32,000 nucleotides of DNA from Caldimicrobium thiodismutans (GTDB taxonomy: Bacteria > Desulfobacterota > Thermodesulfobacteria > Thermodesulfobacteriales > Thermodesulfobacteriaceae): the NCBI RefSeq assembly GCF_001548275.1, contig NZ_AP014945.1, positions 120,001 through 152,000 on the forward strand. Direction: 5' to 3'. A program made the position numbers and the translations under genes. Of this stretch, positions 1,616-31,763 are shown piece by piece (position 1 is the stretch's first letter; every line of letters begins with the position of its first letter). Below the pieces are notes generated by a model. It was not told where the DNA came from. It did no database searches and was given only the letters and a program-made list of their open reading frames with translations.

Positions 1616-1676
1616 ATTTTAAAGAACTAAGGGGTTTTGTCAAGGCAGTTGTATAAGTCCATATCTTTTGAGACTC
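1616..1676 (-). promoter_or_regulatory. Box-type promoter P1 for the 1606..328 operon: box, -35 TTGACA, -10 TAAAAT
   Basis: On the minus strand the box GAGTCTCAAAAGATATGGACTTATAC occupies 1676-1651. A 7-nt gap follows, then TTGACA (1643-1638), a 16-nt spacer, TAAAAT (1621-1616), 9 nt and the ATG at 1606. Confidence 0.6.
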
Positions 1677-1800
1677 TATAGGATTTTTTCTTAGGGCGTA
1701 ACACAAATTAAATCTCTCCACACAATCCCCCTTCGGAAAGAAAGGATAAATAATCTTTAAAATCTTTCTTTTAAGTAGGGGTTTAAAATTTTAAACCCCT
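1637..1800. repeat. Left arm of a ~165-bp inverted repeat flanking the 1979-3529 gene; it ends in a 24-bp perfect palindrome
   Basis: 1637-1800 aligns by eye at roughly 90% identity from TCCATATC onward with the reverse complement of 3746-3912. The inner end is AGGGGTTTAAAATTTTAAACCCCT (1777-1800). Weaker similarity continues to about 1850. Confidence 0.85.
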
Positions 1801-1943
1801 ACCCTGGATACCTCAAAAGCAGAAACAGTTGCCTCTGTTCCATACTTTTTACCACCCCTCCTCAAACACCTTAGGTCTGCCCCTACATTAATGATGAAAA
1901 CTGTCTATTTTTAAAAAGGGATTGCACAAGGAAAGAGCTAACA

Positions 1944-1972
1944 TTGATTTTTCATAAAAGAAGCCTTAAAAT
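1944..1972 (+). promoter_or_regulatory. Sigma-70-like promoter placed for a leaderless transcript of the 1979 gene
   Basis: TTGATT (1944-1949), a 17-nt spacer, TAAAAT (1967-1972), 6 nt (aaagct), then the ATG at 1979. There is no SD. Confidence 0.5.
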
Positions 1973-1978
1973 AAAGCT

Positions 1979-3529
1979 ATGGAGAAAAAGCTTCCCATCG
2001 GGATTTCAAGCTTTGAAAAGATTAGAAGTGAGCCCTATTATTATGTGGATAAAACTCCATTTGTTGTAAAGCTTGTTGAAGAGGGAACTTATTATTTTCT
2101 CTCCCGCCCAAGGAGATTTGGAAAATCCCTTTTTGTGGATACCCTGAAACAGGCCTTCCTTGGAAGAAAAGAGCTTTTCCAAGGGCTCTATCTTGAAAAG
2201 AACTGGGACTGGAGTGTCAGGTATCCTGTTATACATATTGATTTTGGGGGAGGAGAGGTTAAAAGTATAGAAGCCCTTGAGAAATGGATACTTCAGCAAC
2301 TTGAGGAACATCAAAATCTTTATGATATTACCTGCAAATGGAAAGATGATTATCATGCCTGTTTCAGGGAACTAATCTTAAAACTTTCTCAGAAATATGC
2401 ATCTAAAGTAGTAGTTCTTGTTGATGAGTATGACAAACCCATTCTTGATTGCATTGAGGATAGAGAAACTGCAAAGGCAGTAAGAGATGTCCTTAAGAAT
2501 TTTTATAGTGTCTTAAAACCCCTTGATGCTCAGCTCAAGTTTGTTTTCTTAACAGGGGTCTCTAAATTCTCAAAGGTTTCTCTTTTTTCTGGGCTAAATC
2601 AGTTAAATGATATTACCATTGATAAGAGATTTGCAGAAATCTGTGGATACACTCAAGAAGAGCTTGAAGAGGTCTTCAGAGAGGAATTAGAAGATAAGGA
2701 TTTAGAGCTTATAAGATGCTGGTATAATGGTTATTCCTGGCTTGGGGAGCCTCTCTACAATCCCTTTGATATCCTTCTCTATTTAGAGGAAAAAAAATTC
2801 CACCCCTACTGGTTTGAAACTGGGACTCCAAGTTTTCTTGTAAAACTTTTAATGGAGAAGCGTTTTTATCTTCCCGAGCTTGAAGACCTAACTGCAACTG
2901 ATGACCTTATTGGCTCTTTTGACCTTGACTATATTGAACCAGAAAACCTTCTCTTTCAGGTAGGTTATTTGACCATCAAAGAAACTATAGAAGAGGAAGG
3001 GTTAGTTCTCTATAAGCTTTCTTATCCGAATAAAGAGGTAAAGATTAGTTTAAATAGAGTTCTTTTTTCTTATTTTACTCAGCTCAGTTCAGAAAGACCA
3101 AGGCTATCTCTTAAGATGATTGAGGCAGTGAGGGAGAGGGATTTTGAGAAGATGAAGAGGGTTCTTGAGAGTCTTTATGCAGGGATCCCCCATGATTGGT
3201 TCAGGAAAAATGAGCTTTCCCGTTATGAGGGGTATTATGCCAGTTGTTTTTATGCCTTTTTATGTGGGTCAGGGCTTGAGGTGATACCTGAGGATATAAC
3301 AAATAAGGGGCAGATAGATTTGACGGTGCTCTATAGGGAAAGGGTTTATCTTTTTGAGTTCAAGGTGGTTGAGGGAGAGGGGGGAGAAGCTAAAGCTTTA
3401 GCTCAACTGAAGGAGAAGGGTTATCACAAGAAGTATGATGGTTCAGCCAAGGAGATTTATCTTATTGGGATTGAGTTTTCTTCAGGGGAGAGGAATCTTA
3501 AGAGTTTTTTCTGGGAAAAAATAAATTGA
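1979..3529 (+). CDS. AAA-ATPase-like protein with a C-terminal PD-(D/E)XK nuclease domain (the 'predicted AAA-ATPase' / PDDEXK_9 architecture)
   Basis: This is a 516-aa ORF. The N-terminus LPIGISSFEKIRSEPYYYVDKTPFVVKLVEEGTYYFLSRPRRFGKSLFVDTL is the hallmark of this family. VVVLVDEYDKP is Walker-B-like. The C-terminal GQIDLTVLYRERVYLFEFKV fits a D...E-x-K nuclease core. Confidence 0.8.
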   Translation: MEKKLPIGISSFEKIRSEPYYYVDKTPFVVKLVEEGTYYFLSRPRRFGKSLFVDTLKQAFLGRKELFQGLYLEKNWDWSVRYPVIHIDFGGGEVKSIEALEKWILQQLEEHQNLYDITCKWKDDYHACFRELILKLSQKYASKVVVLVDEYDKPILDCIEDRETAKAVRDVLKNFYSVLKPLDAQLKFVFLTGVSKFSKVSLFSGLNQLNDITIDKRFAEICGYTQEELEEVFREELEDKDLELIRCWYNGYSWLGEPLYNPFDILLYLEEKKFHPYWFETGTPSFLVKLLMEKRFYLPELEDLTATDDLIGSFDLDYIEPENLLFQVGYLTIKETIEEEGLVLYKLSYPNKEVKISLNRVLFSYFTQLSSERPRLSLKMIEAVRERDFEKMKRVLESLYAGIPHDWFRKNELSRYEGYYASCFYAFLCGSGLEVIPEDITNKGQIDLTVLYRERVYLFEFKVVEGEGGEAKALAQLKEKGYHKKYDGSAKEIYLIGIEFSSGERNLKSFFWEKIN

Positions 3530-3552
3530 TTTTTTACTGCTTTATTATGGAA

Positions 3553-3582
3553 GTCTGCATAAGTTCATATCCTTACAAGAAG
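3553..3582. repeat. Distal box of the tRNA-Tyr promoter module, an inverted copy of the promoter box
   Basis: GTCTGCATAAGTTCATATCCTTACAAGAAG. Its GCATAAGTTCATATCCTT part matches the reverse complement of the promoter box (GCATGCGTCCATATCTTT) at 13 of 18 positions without gaps. Related copies lie at 27281-27305, 31664-31686 and, reverse-complemented, 22581-22607. Confidence 0.7.
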
Positions 3583-3640
3583 AAGGAAGTGGGGTAAAAG
3601 GGGAATTAGATATCTATATAAGGGAGGTTATACAAGTCTG

Positions 3641-3724
3641 AAAGTAACACAGGCAATCTTGCCTGTGGAGGTAAATTACACTTCAATGTATGAAAGAAAC
3701 ACAGACAAGAATGTCTGTGCTACA
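3641..3724. repeat. Two tandem ~32-nt units, each containing a hairpin
   Basis: GAAAGTAACACAGGCAATCTTGCCTGTGGAGG has the stem CACAGGCA/TGCCTGTG at 3648-3667. GAAAGAAACACAGACAAGAATGTCTGTGCTAC has the stem CACAGAC/GTCTGTG at 3700-3719. A related hairpin occurs in the left arm at about 1820-1841. Confidence 0.6.
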
Positions 3725-3745
3725 ACAAACCCACAAAAAAATTCA

Positions 3746-3912
3746 AGGGGTTTAAAATTTTAAACCCCTACTTAAGGAAAGATTTTGCAGATTTTTTATC
3801 CTTTCTTTCCGAAGGGGAATGGGTATGTGGAGAGGTTTAATTTGTGTTAGGCCCAAAGAAAAAATCCTATAGAGTCTTAAAAGATATGGACGCATGCATG
3901 CCCTTGACAAAA
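3746..3912. repeat. Right arm of the ~165-bp inverted repeat; it starts with the same 24-bp palindrome
   Basis: AGGGGTTTAAAATTTTAAACCCCT lies at 3746-3769. The rest is the reverse complement of 1637-1776 with scattered substitutions and small indels. On the minus strand the palindrome is followed by TGAATTTTTTT. Confidence 0.85.
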
Positions 3913-3931
3913 TGTTAAAATAAGTTAATTT
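3872..3931 (+). promoter_or_regulatory. Box-type promoter P2 for the tRNA-Tyr/Gly/Thr-tuf transcription unit
   Basis: Box GAGTCTTAAAAGATATGGACGCATGC (3872-3897), a 6-nt gap, TTGACA (3904-3909), a 16-nt spacer, then the candidate -10 TAATTT (3926-3931). The tRNA-Tyr 5' end is at 3946. Confidence 0.55.
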
Positions 3932-3945
3932 TATTAATACAAAAA

Positions 3946-17699: not shown

Positions 17700-17854
17700 C
17701 TCATTTTACAGTAGGGGTAAACCTATGTGTTTGCCCTCTTTGGGTATCACCTTTCACCTTTTTACCTCTCACCTTTTACTACCCTTTTTGCCTATATTGA
17801 TCTAAAGTTATGAAGGAAGATTACATCTTTACCTGAAAATATGAATTTACATAA
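17700..17854. repeat. Mosaic repeat segment upstream of P3: GTAGGGG box, C/T-rich (anti-SD-like) heptad tract and a degenerate distal box
   Basis: CAGTAGGGGTAAACC lies at about 17709-17725. TCACCTTTCACCTTTTTACCTCTCACCTTTTACTACCC lies at about 17747-17785. GAAAATATGAATTTACATAA (17835-17854) resembles the box in inverted orientation, matching about 12 of 19 positions. Confidence 0.55.
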
Positions 17855-21119: not shown

Positions 21120-22334
21120 GTGTCAAAAAGTAAGAATAAAATAAGTATTTTCCTCATTATTAAGGAGTTTTTTCAAAAATTTTTAAGAGATGAAATCCTT
21201 CTCTTCGCGCAGGGTTTAACCTATAATACCCTTTTAACTATTATTCCATTATTAGGATTAGTGGTTTCTCTCGGGAGAAGTTTTCTTCAAGAAGACCTGG
21301 TTATCCAGCAAAGTTTTCTCTTCTTTGCCAATTATCTTAGCACAGAAGCCTTGATACAGGTAATGGAAAGAATTATTAGTCTTTTGGAGAATTTAAAGAA
21401 GTTTCCCCTTGGTAAGTTTAGTCTTTTCTTTTATTTTATTATGAGTCTTGGGCTCCTCTTTCAGCTTGAGGATGCTTTAAATCGTATTTTTTTGAGCCTA
21501 AAGAGAAGGACTTTTAAAGAAAGGATTCTCTTTTATTGGATTGTTCTCACCCTTTCCCCTTTTATTTTCTTCCTCCCTGTGCTTTTACAGACTTCTCTTA
21601 AGCCTTATTTGAGTTATCAGCTTATTTTTTATTTCTTTTTTCTGTTGATATTCTTTTTTTTGCTTTACATCTATTTTCCTGCCCGAAAGGTTAGTAAGGT
21701 TGCTGCTATTAAAGGAGCTATTTTTGCTACCATTCTCTGGTATGGATTTTCCTTTCTTTTTGGTTTTTATGTAAAAAAGGCAGTAGCTTATTCCAAACTT
21801 TACGGAAGTTTGTCTATTTTTCCTATTTTTCTGATTTTTGTGTTTTTAAATTGGCTAATTTTTCTAATCGGTGCAGAGATTACCTATTTTTTAGAGAGGA
21901 GGCCCTGGAAAAAGAGGGTAATTACCCTTGCCTCTCCTTTGAAAGAGTTTTTTCTTTTAATCTTTTTGACTAAGAGCTTTTATAGTGGACAGGTTGTCTC
22001 CTTAAAGACCTTAAGTAAAGAGCTTCCTCTTTCAGAAGAGGAAATCTTGATGGCTATAAAAGAGCTTGAAAAGAAAAATTTTGTATTTTTAAGGGATGAG
22101 GAGGTATTTTTTCGCATTCCCCCAGAAGGGATTTTAATAGGGGATTTATTTTCTGGGGACATTTTTCAGGAAATAAAGGAAAGTAAAGAATTTTTATCCT
22201 TGATGACCGAGCTTTGCCCTTTTAGGGAGGATATTTTAAGAAAATCCTTAAGGGATTTAGTTATTTCTGAGGATATAAAAAATGCCGAGGGCGGGAGTCG
22301 AACCCGCACGGGGGTAAACCCCAGTGGATTTTGA
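21120..22334 (+). CDS. YihY/BrkB-family membrane protein (formerly annotated 'ribonuclease BN') with a ~130-aa soluble C-terminal extension; GTG start
   Basis: This is a 404-aa ORF with FAQGLTYNTLLTIIPLL and multiple TM helices typical of YihY. The last 52 nt overlap tRNA-Leu on the opposite strand. Confidence 0.7.
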   Translation: MSKSKNKISIFLIIKEFFQKFLRDEILLFAQGLTYNTLLTIIPLLGLVVSLGRSFLQEDLVIQQSFLFFANYLSTEALIQVMERIISLLENLKKFPLGKFSLFFYFIMSLGLLFQLEDALNRIFLSLKRRTFKERILFYWIVLTLSPFIFFLPVLLQTSLKPYLSYQLIFYFFFLLIFFFLLYIYFPARKVSKVAAIKGAIFATILWYGFSFLFGFYVKKAVAYSKLYGSLSIFPIFLIFVFLNWLIFLIGAEITYFLERRPWKKRVITLASPLKEFFLLIFLTKSFYSGQVVSLKTLSKELPLSEEEILMAIKELEKKNFVFLRDEEVFFRIPPEGILIGDLFSGDIFQEIKESKEFLSLMTELCPFREDILRKSLRDLVISEDIKNAEGGSRTRTGVNPSGF

Positions 22335-22367
22335 GTCCACCGCGTCTGCCTGTTCCGCCACCTCGGC
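22283..22367 (-). tRNA. tRNA-Leu (anticodon CAA), class II
   Basis: The minus strand reads GCCGAGGTGGCGGAACAGGCAGAC...GGACTCAAAATCC...GCGGGTTCGACTCCCGCCCTCGGCA. The acceptor GCCGAGG pairs with CCTCGGC and no CCA is encoded. Confidence 0.9.
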
Positions 22368-22376
22368 TAATATTAA

Positions 22377-22436
22377 ATTTTAATCCCCTTTTTTTAGTTT
22401 ACAAGCATTTGGATGTATTCATATCTTTTGAGACTC
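22377..22436 (-). promoter_or_regulatory. Box-type promoter P4 for tRNA-Leu
   Basis: On the minus strand: box GAGTCTCAAAAGATATGAATACATCC (22436-22411), a 6-nt gap, TTGTAA (22404-22399), a 16-nt spacer, TAAAAT (22382-22377), then 9 nt to the tRNA 5' end. Confidence 0.6.
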
Positions 22437-22607
22437 TTATCTCCCCTTTTTAGCAAATAAACTGGGTTATCCTTTTATCCTAAACATTAAACGATAGATC
22501 TTCCCCTACATTGATGAGACATATGTTATTTGACATTATTTCTACCTCTCACCTCTCACCTTTTTACTCTCCTTCCTTTTCCTTGTAAGGATGTGAGCTT
22601 ATACAGG
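22411..22607. repeat. Type-2 mosaic module (~197 bp), a near-identical inverted copy of 27281-27487
   Basis: From CATATCTTTTGAGACTCTTATCTCCCC to TTATTTCTACCT, about 130 bp, I see only ~5 mismatches against the reverse complement of the 27.3-kb copy. The ends are inverted boxes at 22411-22436 and 22581-22607. Confidence 0.9.
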
Positions 22608-22647
22608 TTGCCAAGGGAGAATGAGTAGGTGGACAAAAATCCTCATT

Positions 22648-22708
22648 AAGTCTTAAAAGATATGGACGCATACATTTTCTTGACAGAAAGGCTTTGAGAA
22701 GTTAAAAT
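22648..22708 (+). promoter_or_regulatory. Box-type promoter P5 for rimP-nusA-ylxR
   Basis: Box AAGTCTTAAAAGATATGGACGCATAC (22648-22673), a 6-nt gap, TTGACA (22680-22685), a 17-nt spacer, TAAAAT (22703-22708), 6 nt, then the ATG at 22715. Confidence 0.65.
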
Positions 22709-22714
22709 TTATTT

Positions 22715-23200
22715 ATGTATAAAAGCTCAGAAGGGGAAAAGGATCTTAAGGAAAAGCTATGGGAATTGCTTGAATTGCCTATTCTGAAGAAAAAAATGGA
22801 GCTTGTGGATATAGAGTGGAGAAGAGAAAGAACAGGTTGGGTGCTTAGACTATATATTGATAAACCCGGAGGTGTTACCATAGGAGATTGCGCAAAAATT
22901 AGTGAACTTGTAGGTCACCTTTTGGATAAAGAGAATCTTATTCATCATCCTTATAATCTTGAGGTTTCAAGCCCCGGTATTGAAAGACCTCTTAAAACAA
23001 AAGAACACTTTGAGAGATTTAAGGGAGAAAAGGCCAAAATTACTCTTAAAAATCCTCTTGCAGGCAGAAGAAATCTTGTGGGGACAATTCTTGGGATTAA
23101 AGAAGATTTCTTAGAACTTTCTGCCGAGGGAAAAGTTTGGGAAATTGCCCTCTCAAACATTAAAAAAGCCAATCTTCAGCCTGAAATAACTTTTAAATAA
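22715..23200 (+). CDS. rimP: Ribosome maturation factor RimP
   Basis: This is a 161-aa ORF. LVDIEWRRERTGWVLRLYIDKPGGVTIGDCAKIS...YNLEVSSPGIERPL matches the RimP core. It lies upstream of nusA. Confidence 0.9.
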   Translation: MYKSSEGEKDLKEKLWELLELPILKKKMELVDIEWRRERTGWVLRLYIDKPGGVTIGDCAKISELVGHLLDKENLIHHPYNLEVSSPGIERPLKTKEHFERFKGEKAKITLKNPLAGRRNLVGTILGIKEDFLELSAEGKVWEIALSNIKKANLQPEITFK

Positions 23201-27147: not shown

Positions 27148-27280
27148 AGGAAAAGCCTCCTGCAATTTTTGTTATCATTAAAAAATACACTATAGTAGAA
27201 GTAAAAACAAATAAAAAATTTCAATTTTTAATTTAAAATTAATTGAAAAATCTAATCAAAATATAAGGAGAGAACCTTAG

Positions 27281-27487
27281 GTCTGCATAAGTTTATACCT
27301 TACAGGAAAAAAGGTGGTAAAAGGTAAAAAGGTAAGAGGTGAGAGGTGAAAGGTAGAAATAATGTCAAATAACATATGTTTCATCAATTTAGGGGAAGAT
27401 CTATCGTTTAATGTTTAGGATAAAAGAATAACCCAGTTTATTTGCTAAAAAGGGGAGATAAGAGTCTCAAAAGATATGGACGCATAC
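27281..27487. repeat. Type-2 mosaic module (~207 bp), an inverted near-identical copy of 22411-22607
   Basis: In order it holds the distal box GTCTGCATAAGTTTATACCTTACAG (27281-27305), an AGGT heptad tract (27311-27356), CATCAATTTAGGGGAAGATC (about 27384-27408), and the proximal box GAGTCTCAAAAGATATGGACGCATAC (27462-27487). Confidence 0.9.
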
Positions 27488-27522
27488 ACAGGTCTTGCAA
27501 GATTTTAAAATCCTTTTAAGAT
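27462..27522 (+). promoter_or_regulatory. Box-type promoter P6 for the 27529 kinase-fusion gene
   Basis: Box (27462-27487), a 7-nt gap, TTGCAA (27495-27500), a 16-nt spacer, TAAGAT (27517-27522), 6 nt, then the ATG at 27529. There is no SD. Confidence 0.55.
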
Positions 27523-27528
27523 TTAGCT

Positions 27529-29082
27529 ATGGAAAATACCATTCCCTGGGCAGAGGTCTTAACATTTAGCAATCTTCCCTTTGACACAAAAACATTTCAG
27601 ATTCTGCAGACCCATATCTCCTATGTGATTATTACTGATTCTATAGTTTATAAAATCAAAAAGCCCGTAAATTTTGGATTTCTTGACTTTACCACCCTTG
27701 AAAAAAGAAAGTTTTATTGTGAAAGGGAAGTAGAGCTTAACCGCAGGCTTTGTGGAGATCTTTATATAGGGGTGGTTCCTATTGTTAAAACAGAGAAAGG
27801 TTATCAGATTGAGGGAGAGGGTGAGCCAGTTGAATATGCCGTTAAGATGGGAAGGCTTCCTGAAGAGGGGATGATGAAAGGGCTCTTAAGGGAGGGGCTC
27901 TTAACTAAGGCTCATCTTGATCTCATTGTGGATACCCTGGTTCCCTTCTATAAAAGTGCAGAAACTGGAGAGAAGGTGAATTACTTTGGAAGTCTTGAGG
28001 TGATCTCCTTTAATACTGAGGAAAATTTTGAGCAAACTAAAGGTTTTGTAGGTAAAGCCTTAACCAAAAGAAAATATGAACACATTGTTAATTATACCAG
28101 AAATTTTATTAAGGAGAGGGCTTCAATTTTTCAAAAAAGAATAAAAGAGGGTTATATTCGAGATGGTCATGGTGATCTCTATTCTGCCAATATTTGCTTT
28201 GATGACTTAAAAAGGGTTTATATCTTTGATTGTATTGAATTTAATGATCGCTTTAGATGTGGAGATGTGGCTCAGGATCTTGCCTTTCTTGCCATGGATC
28301 TTGACTTTTATCGTCTTAAAGAATTTTCTGATTATTTTATAGAGGAGTATGTGAAGAAGAGTGGAGACAAAGGGCTTTATGAGGTGCTTGATTTTTACAA
28401 GTGTTACAGGGCTTATGTGAGGGGGAAAATAGGTTGTTTTACCTCTGAAGATGAGAGGGTTCCAGAGGAAGAGAGGATTAAAGCCCTTGAATCAGCTCAG
28501 AAATATTTTGATCTTGCCTTTTCCTATGCAGGGGGGAAACCAAAGGTAGCTGTTTTTATGGGGCTTTCAGGAACAGGGAAGACCTTTTTGGCTAAAGAAA
28601 TTCAAGCAAGGTATCCAGTCGCCTATCTTTCATCGGATATTGAAAGAAAAAGACTTTTGAGTTTAAGCCCTGAGGAGCACTATTTTGCTGAGTTTGAAAG
28701 GGGAATTTACTCCCCTGAGATGACAGAAAAAACCTATGCTCAGTTGATAGAAAAGGCTATAGAGGAGACTTCCTTTGGAAGGGATGTTGTTATTGATGCT
28801 ACTTTCAGAGAGAAAAGATTTAGGGATAATCTTAAGAAGGCTTTAGAAGGAATTGGTATTGAGCCCCTTTGGGTCTTATGCACCGCTACGGATGAGGTAG
28901 TAAAGGAGCGTATAGAAAAAAGGCTTAAGGAGAAAACTGCATCAGATGCCCTCTTTGAGACCTATCTTAAGCAAAAGGAAAGATTTGAGCCCCCACAGTC
29001 AGAAGATAATTTATTAATTCTGGATACTTCCCAGGAACTCTCCAAAGTTCTCGGTTATCTTGAAGAATTTTTAGATTTTTAG
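27529..29082 (+). CDS. Bifunctional phosphotransferase-like (APH/ePK-fold) plus P-loop kinase (AAA_33-like) fusion protein
   Basis: This is a 517-aa ORF. DGHGDLYSANICF (HGD-x4-N catalytic loop) and IFDCIEF lie in the N-terminal domain. GLSGTGKTFLAK (Walker A) lies in the C-terminal ~180 aa. Confidence 0.7.
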   Translation: MENTIPWAEVLTFSNLPFDTKTFQILQTHISYVIITDSIVYKIKKPVNFGFLDFTTLEKRKFYCEREVELNRRLCGDLYIGVVPIVKTEKGYQIEGEGEPVEYAVKMGRLPEEGMMKGLLREGLLTKAHLDLIVDTLVPFYKSAETGEKVNYFGSLEVISFNTEENFEQTKGFVGKALTKRKYEHIVNYTRNFIKERASIFQKRIKEGYIRDGHGDLYSANICFDDLKRVYIFDCIEFNDRFRCGDVAQDLAFLAMDLDFYRLKEFSDYFIEEYVKKSGDKGLYEVLDFYKCYRAYVRGKIGCFTSEDERVPEEERIKALESAQKYFDLAFSYAGGKPKVAVFMGLSGTGKTFLAKEIQARYPVAYLSSDIERKRLLSLSPEEHYFAEFERGIYSPEMTEKTYAQLIEKAIEETSFGRDVVIDATFREKRFRDNLKKALEGIGIEPLWVLCTATDEVVKERIEKRLKEKTASDALFETYLKQKERFEPPQSEDNLLILDTSQELSKVLGYLEEFLDF

Positions 29083-31652: not shown

Positions 31653-31763
31653 GTATAAGTTTTCCATAAGTTCACATCCTTACAAGAAAAATGAAGGGTG
31701 GAAAAAGGTGAGAGGATATGGACGCATACAATTTTTTGCTTTTCTTTAAAGCAGAGGTATAAT
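31653..31763 (+). promoter_or_regulatory. Shortest mosaic module with box-type promoter P8, about 120 nt upstream of mnmA
   Basis: The distal box CCATAAGTTCACATCCTTACAAG lies at 31664-31686. AAGGTGAGAGG is fused directly to the truncated box ATATGGACGCATAC (31716-31729). A 6-nt gap follows, then TTGCTT (31736-31741), a 16-nt spacer and TATAAT (31758-31763). Confidence 0.55.

Follow-up and report, generated by a model that had tools for sequence, protein, structure and literature searches.

Why should a single gene in a free-living thermophile be bracketed by two long inverted repeats, with a promoter at the outer end of each that fires away from the pair? The locus lies in a 32,000-nucleotide stretch of the Caldimicrobium thiodismutans genome (contig NZ_AP014945.1, positions 120,001 to 152,000), hereafter the window, whose own numbering we use throughout. 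The enclosed gene, THC_0114, encodes a predicted AAA-ATPase with a PD-(D/E)XK nuclease domain. Its left neighbours, on the minus strand, encode a CDP-alcohol transferase and a RibD_C protein; to its right lie tRNA-Tyr, tRNA-Gly and tRNA-Thr, then tuf, with ribosomal and rpo genes further downstream. A preliminary description of the locus had likened it to a composite element, or to an insertion that split or duplicated a divergent promoter region. We think it probable that the arms are decayed copies of an IS481-like insertion sequence adjoining two native promoters, that the bracket follows from the insertion habit of this element, and that THC_0114 is a separate accessory insertion. What is unusual would then be the places where the IS481-like relic family inserts, not the arms themselves.

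Geometry of the inverted repeat

The inverted repeat is real and far above chance. A gapped local alignment of 1635-1800 with 3746-3912, in inverted orientation, gives 150 identical columns of 167 (89.8%), in agreement with the preliminary estimate of about 90%. A repeat search returned three collinear inverted segments: 1650-1722/3826-3898 (73 nt, 90%), 1725-1798/3747-3820 (74 nt, 80%) and 1771-1800/3746-3775 (30 nt, 100%). The inner end of both arms is the same perfect 24-bp palindrome, AGGGGTTTAAAATTTTAAACCCCT, located at 1777-1800 and 3746-3769 as had been reported. Further inward, the weaker similarity described earlier can be seen by eye between the reverse complement of 1815-1850 (GGAACAGAGGCAACTGTTTCTGCT) and 3695-3722 (GAAACACAGACAAGAATGTCTGTGCT). 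We considered the palindrome as a terminator and rejected it: a T-run follows the right copy only, on the minus strand, no transcription enters from that side, and the close strain has an imperfect version of the palindrome. Rfam matched the tRNAs and no other RNA.

The arms do not coincide exactly with the element copies that they contain. These copies terminate at 1650 and 3898, and -35 hexamers lie 6 and 5 nt beyond those ends. The arms seem longer because both native promoters happen to share CCTTGACAAAA.

The arms as IS481-like relics

Both arms translate to the C-terminus of a transposase (PKGNGYVERFN...QKIWTYT). The right arm reads PKGNGYVERFNLC*AQRKNPIES*KIWTHA and the left arm FFPKGDCVERFNLCYALRKNPIESQKIWTYT, and the inner part of the left copy yields a helix-turn-helix remnant (...GGKKYGTEATVSAFEVSR). 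Stop codons and deletions in both flanking copies leave both transposase genes dead. Fuller versions of the reading frame are found elsewhere. In a close strain, represented by the metagenome-assembled genome GCA_017880035.1 and about 99% identical to the window in the flanks, a 463-bp rve pseudogene replaces the 64 bp at 1740-1803, and another copy (L065:13803-14098) retains the whole C-terminal region between ERFN and LCYAQRKN. When a composite relic, made by joining L063 and L065, was compared with NCBIfam, the best match was the IS481 transposase model NF033577 (5e-31), followed by IS3 (4.9e-16); this assignment is the best among the NCBIfam models. The relic scores under the curated cut-off of NF033577 because it is a pseudogene. 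A Pfam rve match was obtained at 9.6e-5.

The outer 27 nt of each arm form a box, GAGTCTCAAAAGATATGGACGCATACA, with eight occurrences in the window. This box pairs with a second one, TGCATAAGTTCATATCCTTACAAG; since the two are imperfect inverted copies of each other (12/16 positions), they are the right and left terminal inverted repeats (TIR-R and TIR-L). The repeats TGCATAAGTTCATATC and TGTATGCGTCCATATC, agreeing at 12 of 16 positions, stand at 3556 and 3898 and in at least six other complete copies. A 97% identical copy of the element at 3556-3898 sits at an unrelated site in the close strain (L063:10312-10655), framed by a perfect 5-bp target duplication, AGAAC; a second perfect duplication, AGGTC, frames the window copy at 27285-27488.

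To the right of THC_0114, TIR matches, translation and the 97% copy thus delimit a putative complete non-autonomous IS481-like element of 343 bp on the plus strand (3556-3898), that is, a miniature inverted-repeat transposable element (MITE). It comprises TIR-L (3556-3579), two hairpins (3648-3667 and 3700-3719), the palindrome (3746-3769), a transposase C-terminal remnant (3809-3850) and TIR-R (3880-3898). The right arm of the inverted repeat corresponds to its 3' half, 3746-3898. On the left, the arm proper (1650-1800, minus strand) is the 3' part of a decayed IS481-like element, as judged from its translation, its identity to the right arm and its TIR-R match; it holds TIR-R (1650-1668), a transposase C-terminal remnant and the palindrome (1777-1800). 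Next to it on the same strand, 1801-1935 carries the N-terminal helix-turn-helix remnant (translation FIINVGADLRCLRRGGKKYGTEATVSAFEVSR) and the 5' region of the element, continuous with the longer L063 relic. This inner relic also resembles, by eye, the interior of the MITE at 27285-27488. The left terminal repeat is gone from the left copy, which is cut off against the promoter of the AAA gene.

The family extends well beyond this locus. Right ends number eight in the window, with more in L063-L065 and L096, and internal-deletion derivatives of 68-343 bp are spread through intergenic DNA. In a metagenome scan with the degenerate pattern AAAAGATATGGAYKYATRYA, L096 alone was a true copy among the matches listed, the others being chance hits. 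By their sequence, then, the arms appear to be ordinary members of a genome-wide IS481-like relic family. In the scenario that we favor, one IS481-like insertion sequence would have left many short MITEs in the intergenic DNA of C. thiodismutans; the right copy, 3556-3898, would be a complete MITE, and the left copy, from 1650 to about 1935 in the opposite orientation, a truncated relic.

Several other copies in the window deserve mention. In a minimal 68-bp derivative at 31663-31730, nothing separates the left terminal repeat with its GGTGAGAGG repeat from the right terminal repeat, and the flanks agree at 4/5 positions (agttt / atttt). Runs of short GGTRARAGG-like repeats occur just inside the left terminal repeat of several copies (27310-27365, 22552-22580 and 17745-17790) and may be subterminal binding sites for the transposase. 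A 200-bp MITE subfamily accounts for a second and stronger inverted pair, 22410-22564/27334-27488 (155 nt, 94%), each arm belonging to one copy. Three close strains, with flanks 99.2-99.5% identical, lack the copy at 27285-27488. At window positions 27161-27573, these strains have instead about 2.85 kb with four genes, one of which encodes a peroxiredoxin, and homology to the window resumes 45 bp inside a 517-aa gene.

Two native promoters

The preliminary description had placed an outward promoter at the outer end of each arm. Promoter-like sites are indeed found there. On the minus strand, P1 of the CDP-alcohol transferase/RibD_C operon reads TTGACA (1643-1638), 16 nt, TAAAAT (1621-1616), with 11 of 12 consensus matches; together with the 6 nt (1644-1649) between it and the element end, it occupies 1607-1649. 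On the plus strand, a 5-nt spacer, TGCCC, is followed by P2 of the tRNA-Tyr-Gly-Thr-tuf operon, the two spanning 3899-3945. P2 consists of TTGACA (3904-3909), 16 nt, TAATTT (3926-3931) and then 14 nt to tRNA-Tyr. It is conserved in the sister species, and was left unlisted by the consensus scan because its -10 matches only 3/6 positions. Since the element ends fall 6 and 5 nt short of the two -35s, the arms abut these promoters and do not carry them.

Synteny between the CDP-alcohol transferase gene and tRNA-Tyr, which had been proposed as a check, proved informative. In four contigs of the sister Caldimicrobium species, where CDP-alcohol transferase is 73% identical in protein and about 76% in DNA, this gene and tRNA-Tyr-Gly-Thr-tuf adjoin each other divergently, with 345 or 830 bp between them; neither the AAA-ATPase gene nor arm sequence is found at the locus in these contigs. 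The layout of P1 recurs in contigs L072 and L069 (9 nt, -10, 16 nt, -35) at equal distance from the ATG. On the right side, homology resumes at window position 3901, where CCCTTGACAAAAATTTAAAATAAGTTAATTTTAAG of the sister species matches GCCCTTGACAAAATGTTAAAATAAGTTAATTTTATT of the window. The sister species thus has both promoters with neither arms nor AAA gene, and we conclude that the promoters are native. Hence the idea of an insertion into a divergent promoter region stands, whereas that of a split or duplicated promoter is ruled out by this empty site: P1 and P2 are two different promoters, each conserved in position and sequence in the species that has no arms.

In an 80%-identical relative, only 138 bp of contig precede the CDP-alcohol transferase gene (L073:1-138). 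The -35 is conserved in this fragment and the right-end box is absent, but part of the sequence is similar to the 5' region of the element (gacctgctcctacattt); the fragment may represent an intermediate state of the locus.

Right ends beside -35 hexamers

The position of the arms with respect to P1 and P2 turned out to be general. In the window and the close-strain loci, we collected 15 independent right ends, each of which points at a TTGACA-like hexamer 4-7 nt away. A perfect TTGACA starts 4-6 nt away from six of them (background 0.064%, binomial p ~3e-16), and at least 4/6 hexamer positions are matched in 13 (background 13.5%, p ~4e-10). By eye, a TAAAAT-like -10 stands 16-17 nt beyond the hexamer in most cases, and the gene or tRNA that comes next is directed away from the element. 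The 5 nt between right end and hexamer are variable and, in the two copies with intact duplications, constitute the duplication itself. All right ends of the window (1650, 3898, 17617, 22410, 22674, 27488, 29283 and 31730) lie 4-6 nt from a -35-like hexamer, and the promoters adjoined are those of tRNA-Tyr, tRNA-Ser, tRNA-Leu, CDP-alcohol transferase, rimP-nusA, an AAA_33 gene, groES and mnmA. The element is present at about half of the promoter regions counted in the window.

These observations suggest how the bracket arose. Each copy's right terminal repeat would have landed 5-6 nt upstream of a native -35, here those of P1 and P2, with the right end facing the -35-like hexamer across one target-duplication length. 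Because orientation toward the -35 is fixed, two divergent promoters yield an inverted pair automatically: two opposed copies would have produced an inverted bracket with promoters firing outwards. The same geometry, with no gene inside, is observed in two more divergent regions, 22410-22674 (tRNA-Leu / rimP) and L064:16234-16745, where only element sequence separates the ends. Beside the first of these, a mechanical open reading frame (ORF) call gives a 404-aa plus-strand ORF (21120-22334) that overlaps the minus-strand tRNA-Leu (22283-22367) by about 50 nt; the true stop or start of this ORF may differ from the call.

As the source of the spacing, we favor target choice by the transposase over selection after insertion: under neutrality alone, the distance would not be held to a single duplication length. 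In its broadest form, this reading holds that the IS481-like family integrates in one orientation, one target-duplication length (5-6 bp) upstream of sigma-70-type -35s, those of tRNA, tuf, groES and rimP-nusA promoters among them, that its right end may since have become an upstream promoter element by co-option, and that the THC_0114 bracket is one visible consequence of a genome-wide insertion rule. On this joint proposition, our own judgment is evenly balanced. Oriented insertion next to promoters may be new: our literature search turned up no account of IS481 elements that abut promoters, nor any of repeats in Caldimicrobium.

One might read the same regularity the other way round and see in the arms regulatory modules, that is, an activating or operator box of a regulon comprising tRNA, tuf, groES and rimP-nusA genes, duplicated together with its promoters. 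The box GAGTCTCAAAAGATATGGACGCATACA is well placed for such a role, at about -41 to -67 from the inferred start of at least eight promoters in 32 kb, a good many of which serve housekeeping genes or tRNAs. However, a transposase reading frame has its 3' end in this box (QKIWTYT), and in longer copies the box runs into rve-coding sequence; a left terminal repeat matches it, and there are copies with target duplications. Furthermore, close strains differ in the copies that they carry, and the sister species, with promoters otherwise intact, has none. We therefore regard a regulatory origin as unlikely, although the box may later have acquired, by co-option, a role as an UP element or as a site for factor binding.

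A mosaic gene between the arms

The space between the arms holds a single gene, as described earlier. The ORF at 1979-3529, on the plus strand, matches PF09820 AAA-ATPase_like at residues 6-203 (3.2e-70, 236.5 bits, cut-off 26.1) and PF08011 PDDEXK_9 at residues 416-508 (8.5e-21, 74.3 bits, cut-off 25.5), and its product is 100% identical to C. thiodismutans THC_0114, a DUF1703-type protein. Across 30 homologs, G48-K49-S50, D149-E150-Y151-D152, D447 and E460-x-K462 are invariant; they correspond to the Walker A/B motifs and the D...ExK nuclease residues. Five further paralogs with 76-89% identity reside in the same 1.8-Mb genome, for six copies altogether (THC_0114, 0502, 0717, 0970, 1258 and 1600). 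A 517-aa ORF at 27529 was considered as another paralog and rejected, being an unrelated AAA_33 kinase-like protein.

The gene has a promoter of its own at 1944-1972 (plus strand), TTGATT(1944)-17-TAAAAT(1972), which the scan scores at 9/12 matches and which is conserved upstream of the paralogs at L064 and L065. The ATG follows after 6 nt with no Shine-Dalgarno sequence, so that the THC_0114 mRNA looks leaderless, in line with the preliminary description. The same arrangement of a -10 box 6-7 nt before the ATG with no Shine-Dalgarno sequence is seen at the AAA-ATPase gene (1944-1981), rimP (22680-22717) and the 517-aa AAA_33 gene (27493-27531), and all three genes look leaderless on this account; tuf and groES carry GGAGG.

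THC_0114 has a history of its own. Between the window and the close strain, the gene itself is a mosaic within flanks that are about 99% identical. Divergent patches at 2250-2400, 2740-2840 and 3340-3490 are 55-88% identical between strains, the first only about 55%, and some match other paralogs at 97-99%. In the ortholog of the other strain, 3254-3500 is 98-99% identical to a different paralog (L064); 2804-3250 is 99-100% identical to a third (L065). Such matches imply that segments are exchanged among the six copies. We suggest that THC_0114 would be a separate accessory insertion, belonging to a DUF1703 family whose paralogs exchange segments. The GC content of the gene, 36-40%, resembles that of its neighbours, and the compositional check proposed earlier gave no signal of foreign origin. 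A homolog 84% identical to THC_0114 is labelled Thermodesulfovibrio sp. TK110, from a different phylum, which suggests recent horizontal transfer of the gene family among thermophiles.

As to function, we agree with the preliminary description that none is established for the AAA-ATPase plus PDDEXK_9 family; that of DUF1703 is likewise unknown in Cardinium (PMC6387759). No PADLOC defence model matches THC_0114 at E <= 0.1, and a sequence search found no relative of solved structure. A moderate-confidence AlphaFold model (pLDDT 70) gives weak fold matches to Cdc6/Orc1 and to CinB/CidB and HincII-type nucleases. The arms, for their part, say nothing about the function of the AAA-ATPase/nuclease gene.

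Weighing the bracket

A number of observations speak against our reading of the locus. Upstream of its AAA start, the paralog locus L065 has about 110 bp in common with the left relic (window 1871-1978), together with a palindrome-like sequence, and at L064 a short MITE lies 188 bp downstream of the AAA copy; some physical link between DUF1703 genes and the element may therefore exist. There is no target duplication at 3556-3898 (ggaagtc vs tgccc), nor at several other copies; of about 9 complete copies, just 2 retain a perfect one. A search of 5.8 billion proteins gave no close intact transposase, the best intact relative being 43% identical, and the boundaries and activity of the element are consequently read from relics alone. 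Finally, copy numbers are drawn from about 130 kb of C. thiodismutans and close strains, and the promoters are consensus predictions backed by conservation.

Some of these points find an explanation. With the element at about half of the promoter regions counted, adjacency of gene and element is expected by chance. Conversion tracts running out of the gene into neighbouring element copies could have produced the upstream piece shared with L065. No inverted repeat of at least 22 nt flanks the gene at the eight other loci surveyed, two with paralogs (L064 and L065) and six with homologs, so that the bracket does not characterize the gene family as such. The left arm of the window has the deletion junction and palindrome of the right arm, and the left arm of the close strain has neither; this shared junction and the missing target duplication at 3556-3898 point to recombination between element copies at the locus. 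The arms today would act only as portable homology for recombination.

Could the two copies nevertheless form a composite transposon, mobilising the AAA-ATPase/nuclease gene through their outer right ends? Copies of the same element do flank one accessory gene, their terminal repeats facing outwards, and the gene is multi-copy; the left-relic piece upstream of the L065 paralog and the MITE downstream of the L064 paralog fit this idea, and the MITE 27285-27488, with its perfect duplication and its absence from three close strains, hints at recent mobility of the family. However, no direct repeat surrounds the pair (GGCAGT vs TGCCC), and the sister-species flanks, 345-830 bp apart with their two separate promoters, do not constitute a single target. 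The left copy has lost its inner terminal repeat, both transposase genes are destroyed, and the protein search that covered 5.8 billion sequences returned no close intact transposase. Inverted repeats enclose the gene at none of the eight other paralog or homolog loci, and the unit is found nowhere else. We consider a composite transposon very unlikely.

We give least credence, and hardly any, to an invertible switch in which recombination between the 165-bp arms flips the 1.9-kb segment and alters the promoter reading into the AAA gene, or in which a cruciform forms: inverted arms of about 150 bp and 90% identity do lie 1.9 kb apart, and the left arm of the window is closer to the right arm than that of the close strain is (junction, palindrome), suggesting exchange, but the orientation is the same in both assemblies (window and close strain), no recombinase domain occurs in the Pfam-scanned proteins (two upstream neighbours and seven elsewhere in the window), the AAA gene has its own conserved promoter so that orientation should not matter, the palindrome is imperfect in the right arm of the close strain, and 90% identity over 150 bp is a poor substrate for homologous recombination.

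The preliminary description had raised the possibility of indel or inversion polymorphism; indels separate the close strains, as in the left arm (463 bp vs 64 bp) and in the right element, which harbors an insertion of the IS110 family in one strain, and no inversion appears in the two assemblies. The IS110 insertion is a 1470-bp element (L066:1635-3104, DEDD_Tnp_IS110) lying in the right MITE at window position 3667-3670, immediately after the hairpin CACAGGCAATCTTGCCTGTG, with GGAG repeated at the junction. The reservation voiced in the preliminary description, that the arms might be ordinary copies of a genome-wide module, is borne out, whereas the arrangement is not shared by all relatives.

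Decayed IS481-like copies beside native promoters, with THC_0114 as a separate insertion, therefore remain our preferred account. It removes the promoter-cassette, switch and active composite-transposon readings of the locus. Target choice, if true, would add a class of target that is new for DDE transposases. It would account for the tolerance, in a 1.8-Mb thermophile genome, of a repeat at about half of the promoters, and would make the family a natural system in which to study the reading of promoter DNA or RNA polymerase by transposases.

Comparison with known systems

The relics share with the IS481 family and its MITEs a single HTH + rve (DDE) transposase, terminal repeats starting with TG and, at two copies, perfect short target duplications. 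IS481 itself generates 6-bp duplications at NCTAGN. Here, in contrast, only pseudogene relics are found, the duplication is 5 bp long, and the site is marked by a neighbouring TTGACA-like hexamer.

A closer geometric parallel is provided by the ISAba32 subgroup of the IS1202 family, which targets XerCD sites with the same end always 5 bp away and produces a 5-bp duplication (Siguier et al., bioRxiv 10.1101/2022.12.17.520857). The geometry resembles that at THC_0114, where one end of an rve-type relic lies 5-6 nt from a short site. ISAba32 copies lacking duplications were attributed by the authors to recombination between copies (bioRxiv 10.1101/2022.12.17.520857). The two systems differ in that the abutting end of ISAba32 is the left, transposase-proximal one and its site is XerC/D, whereas in C. 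thiodismutans the right end abuts a -35-like hexamer and the relic scores as IS481. Insertion into a promoter-proximal 'safe haven' would be comparable to that of ISAba32 at Xer sites or of Ty3 at Pol III promoters.

Composite transposons such as Tn10 and Tn5 also have two inverted copies of one element around a non-transposase gene. The THC_0114 bracket departs from them: no duplication flanks it, one inner end is truncated, the transposases are dead, and two separate native promoters form its flanks.

The enclosed gene has its best counterpart in the DUF1703 genes of Cardinium cCpun, which number 25 copies of about 39% identity, show recombination among paralogs and are of unknown function (Siozios et al. 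2019, PMC6387759). Both systems combine the PF09820 and PF08011 architecture with lineage-specific multi-copy expansion and recombination among paralogs. They differ in scale and setting, with six copies of 76-89% identity in a free-living thermophile as opposed to an endosymbiont; a free-living thermophile hence joins the few documented cases of DUF1703 paralog expansion and segment exchange.

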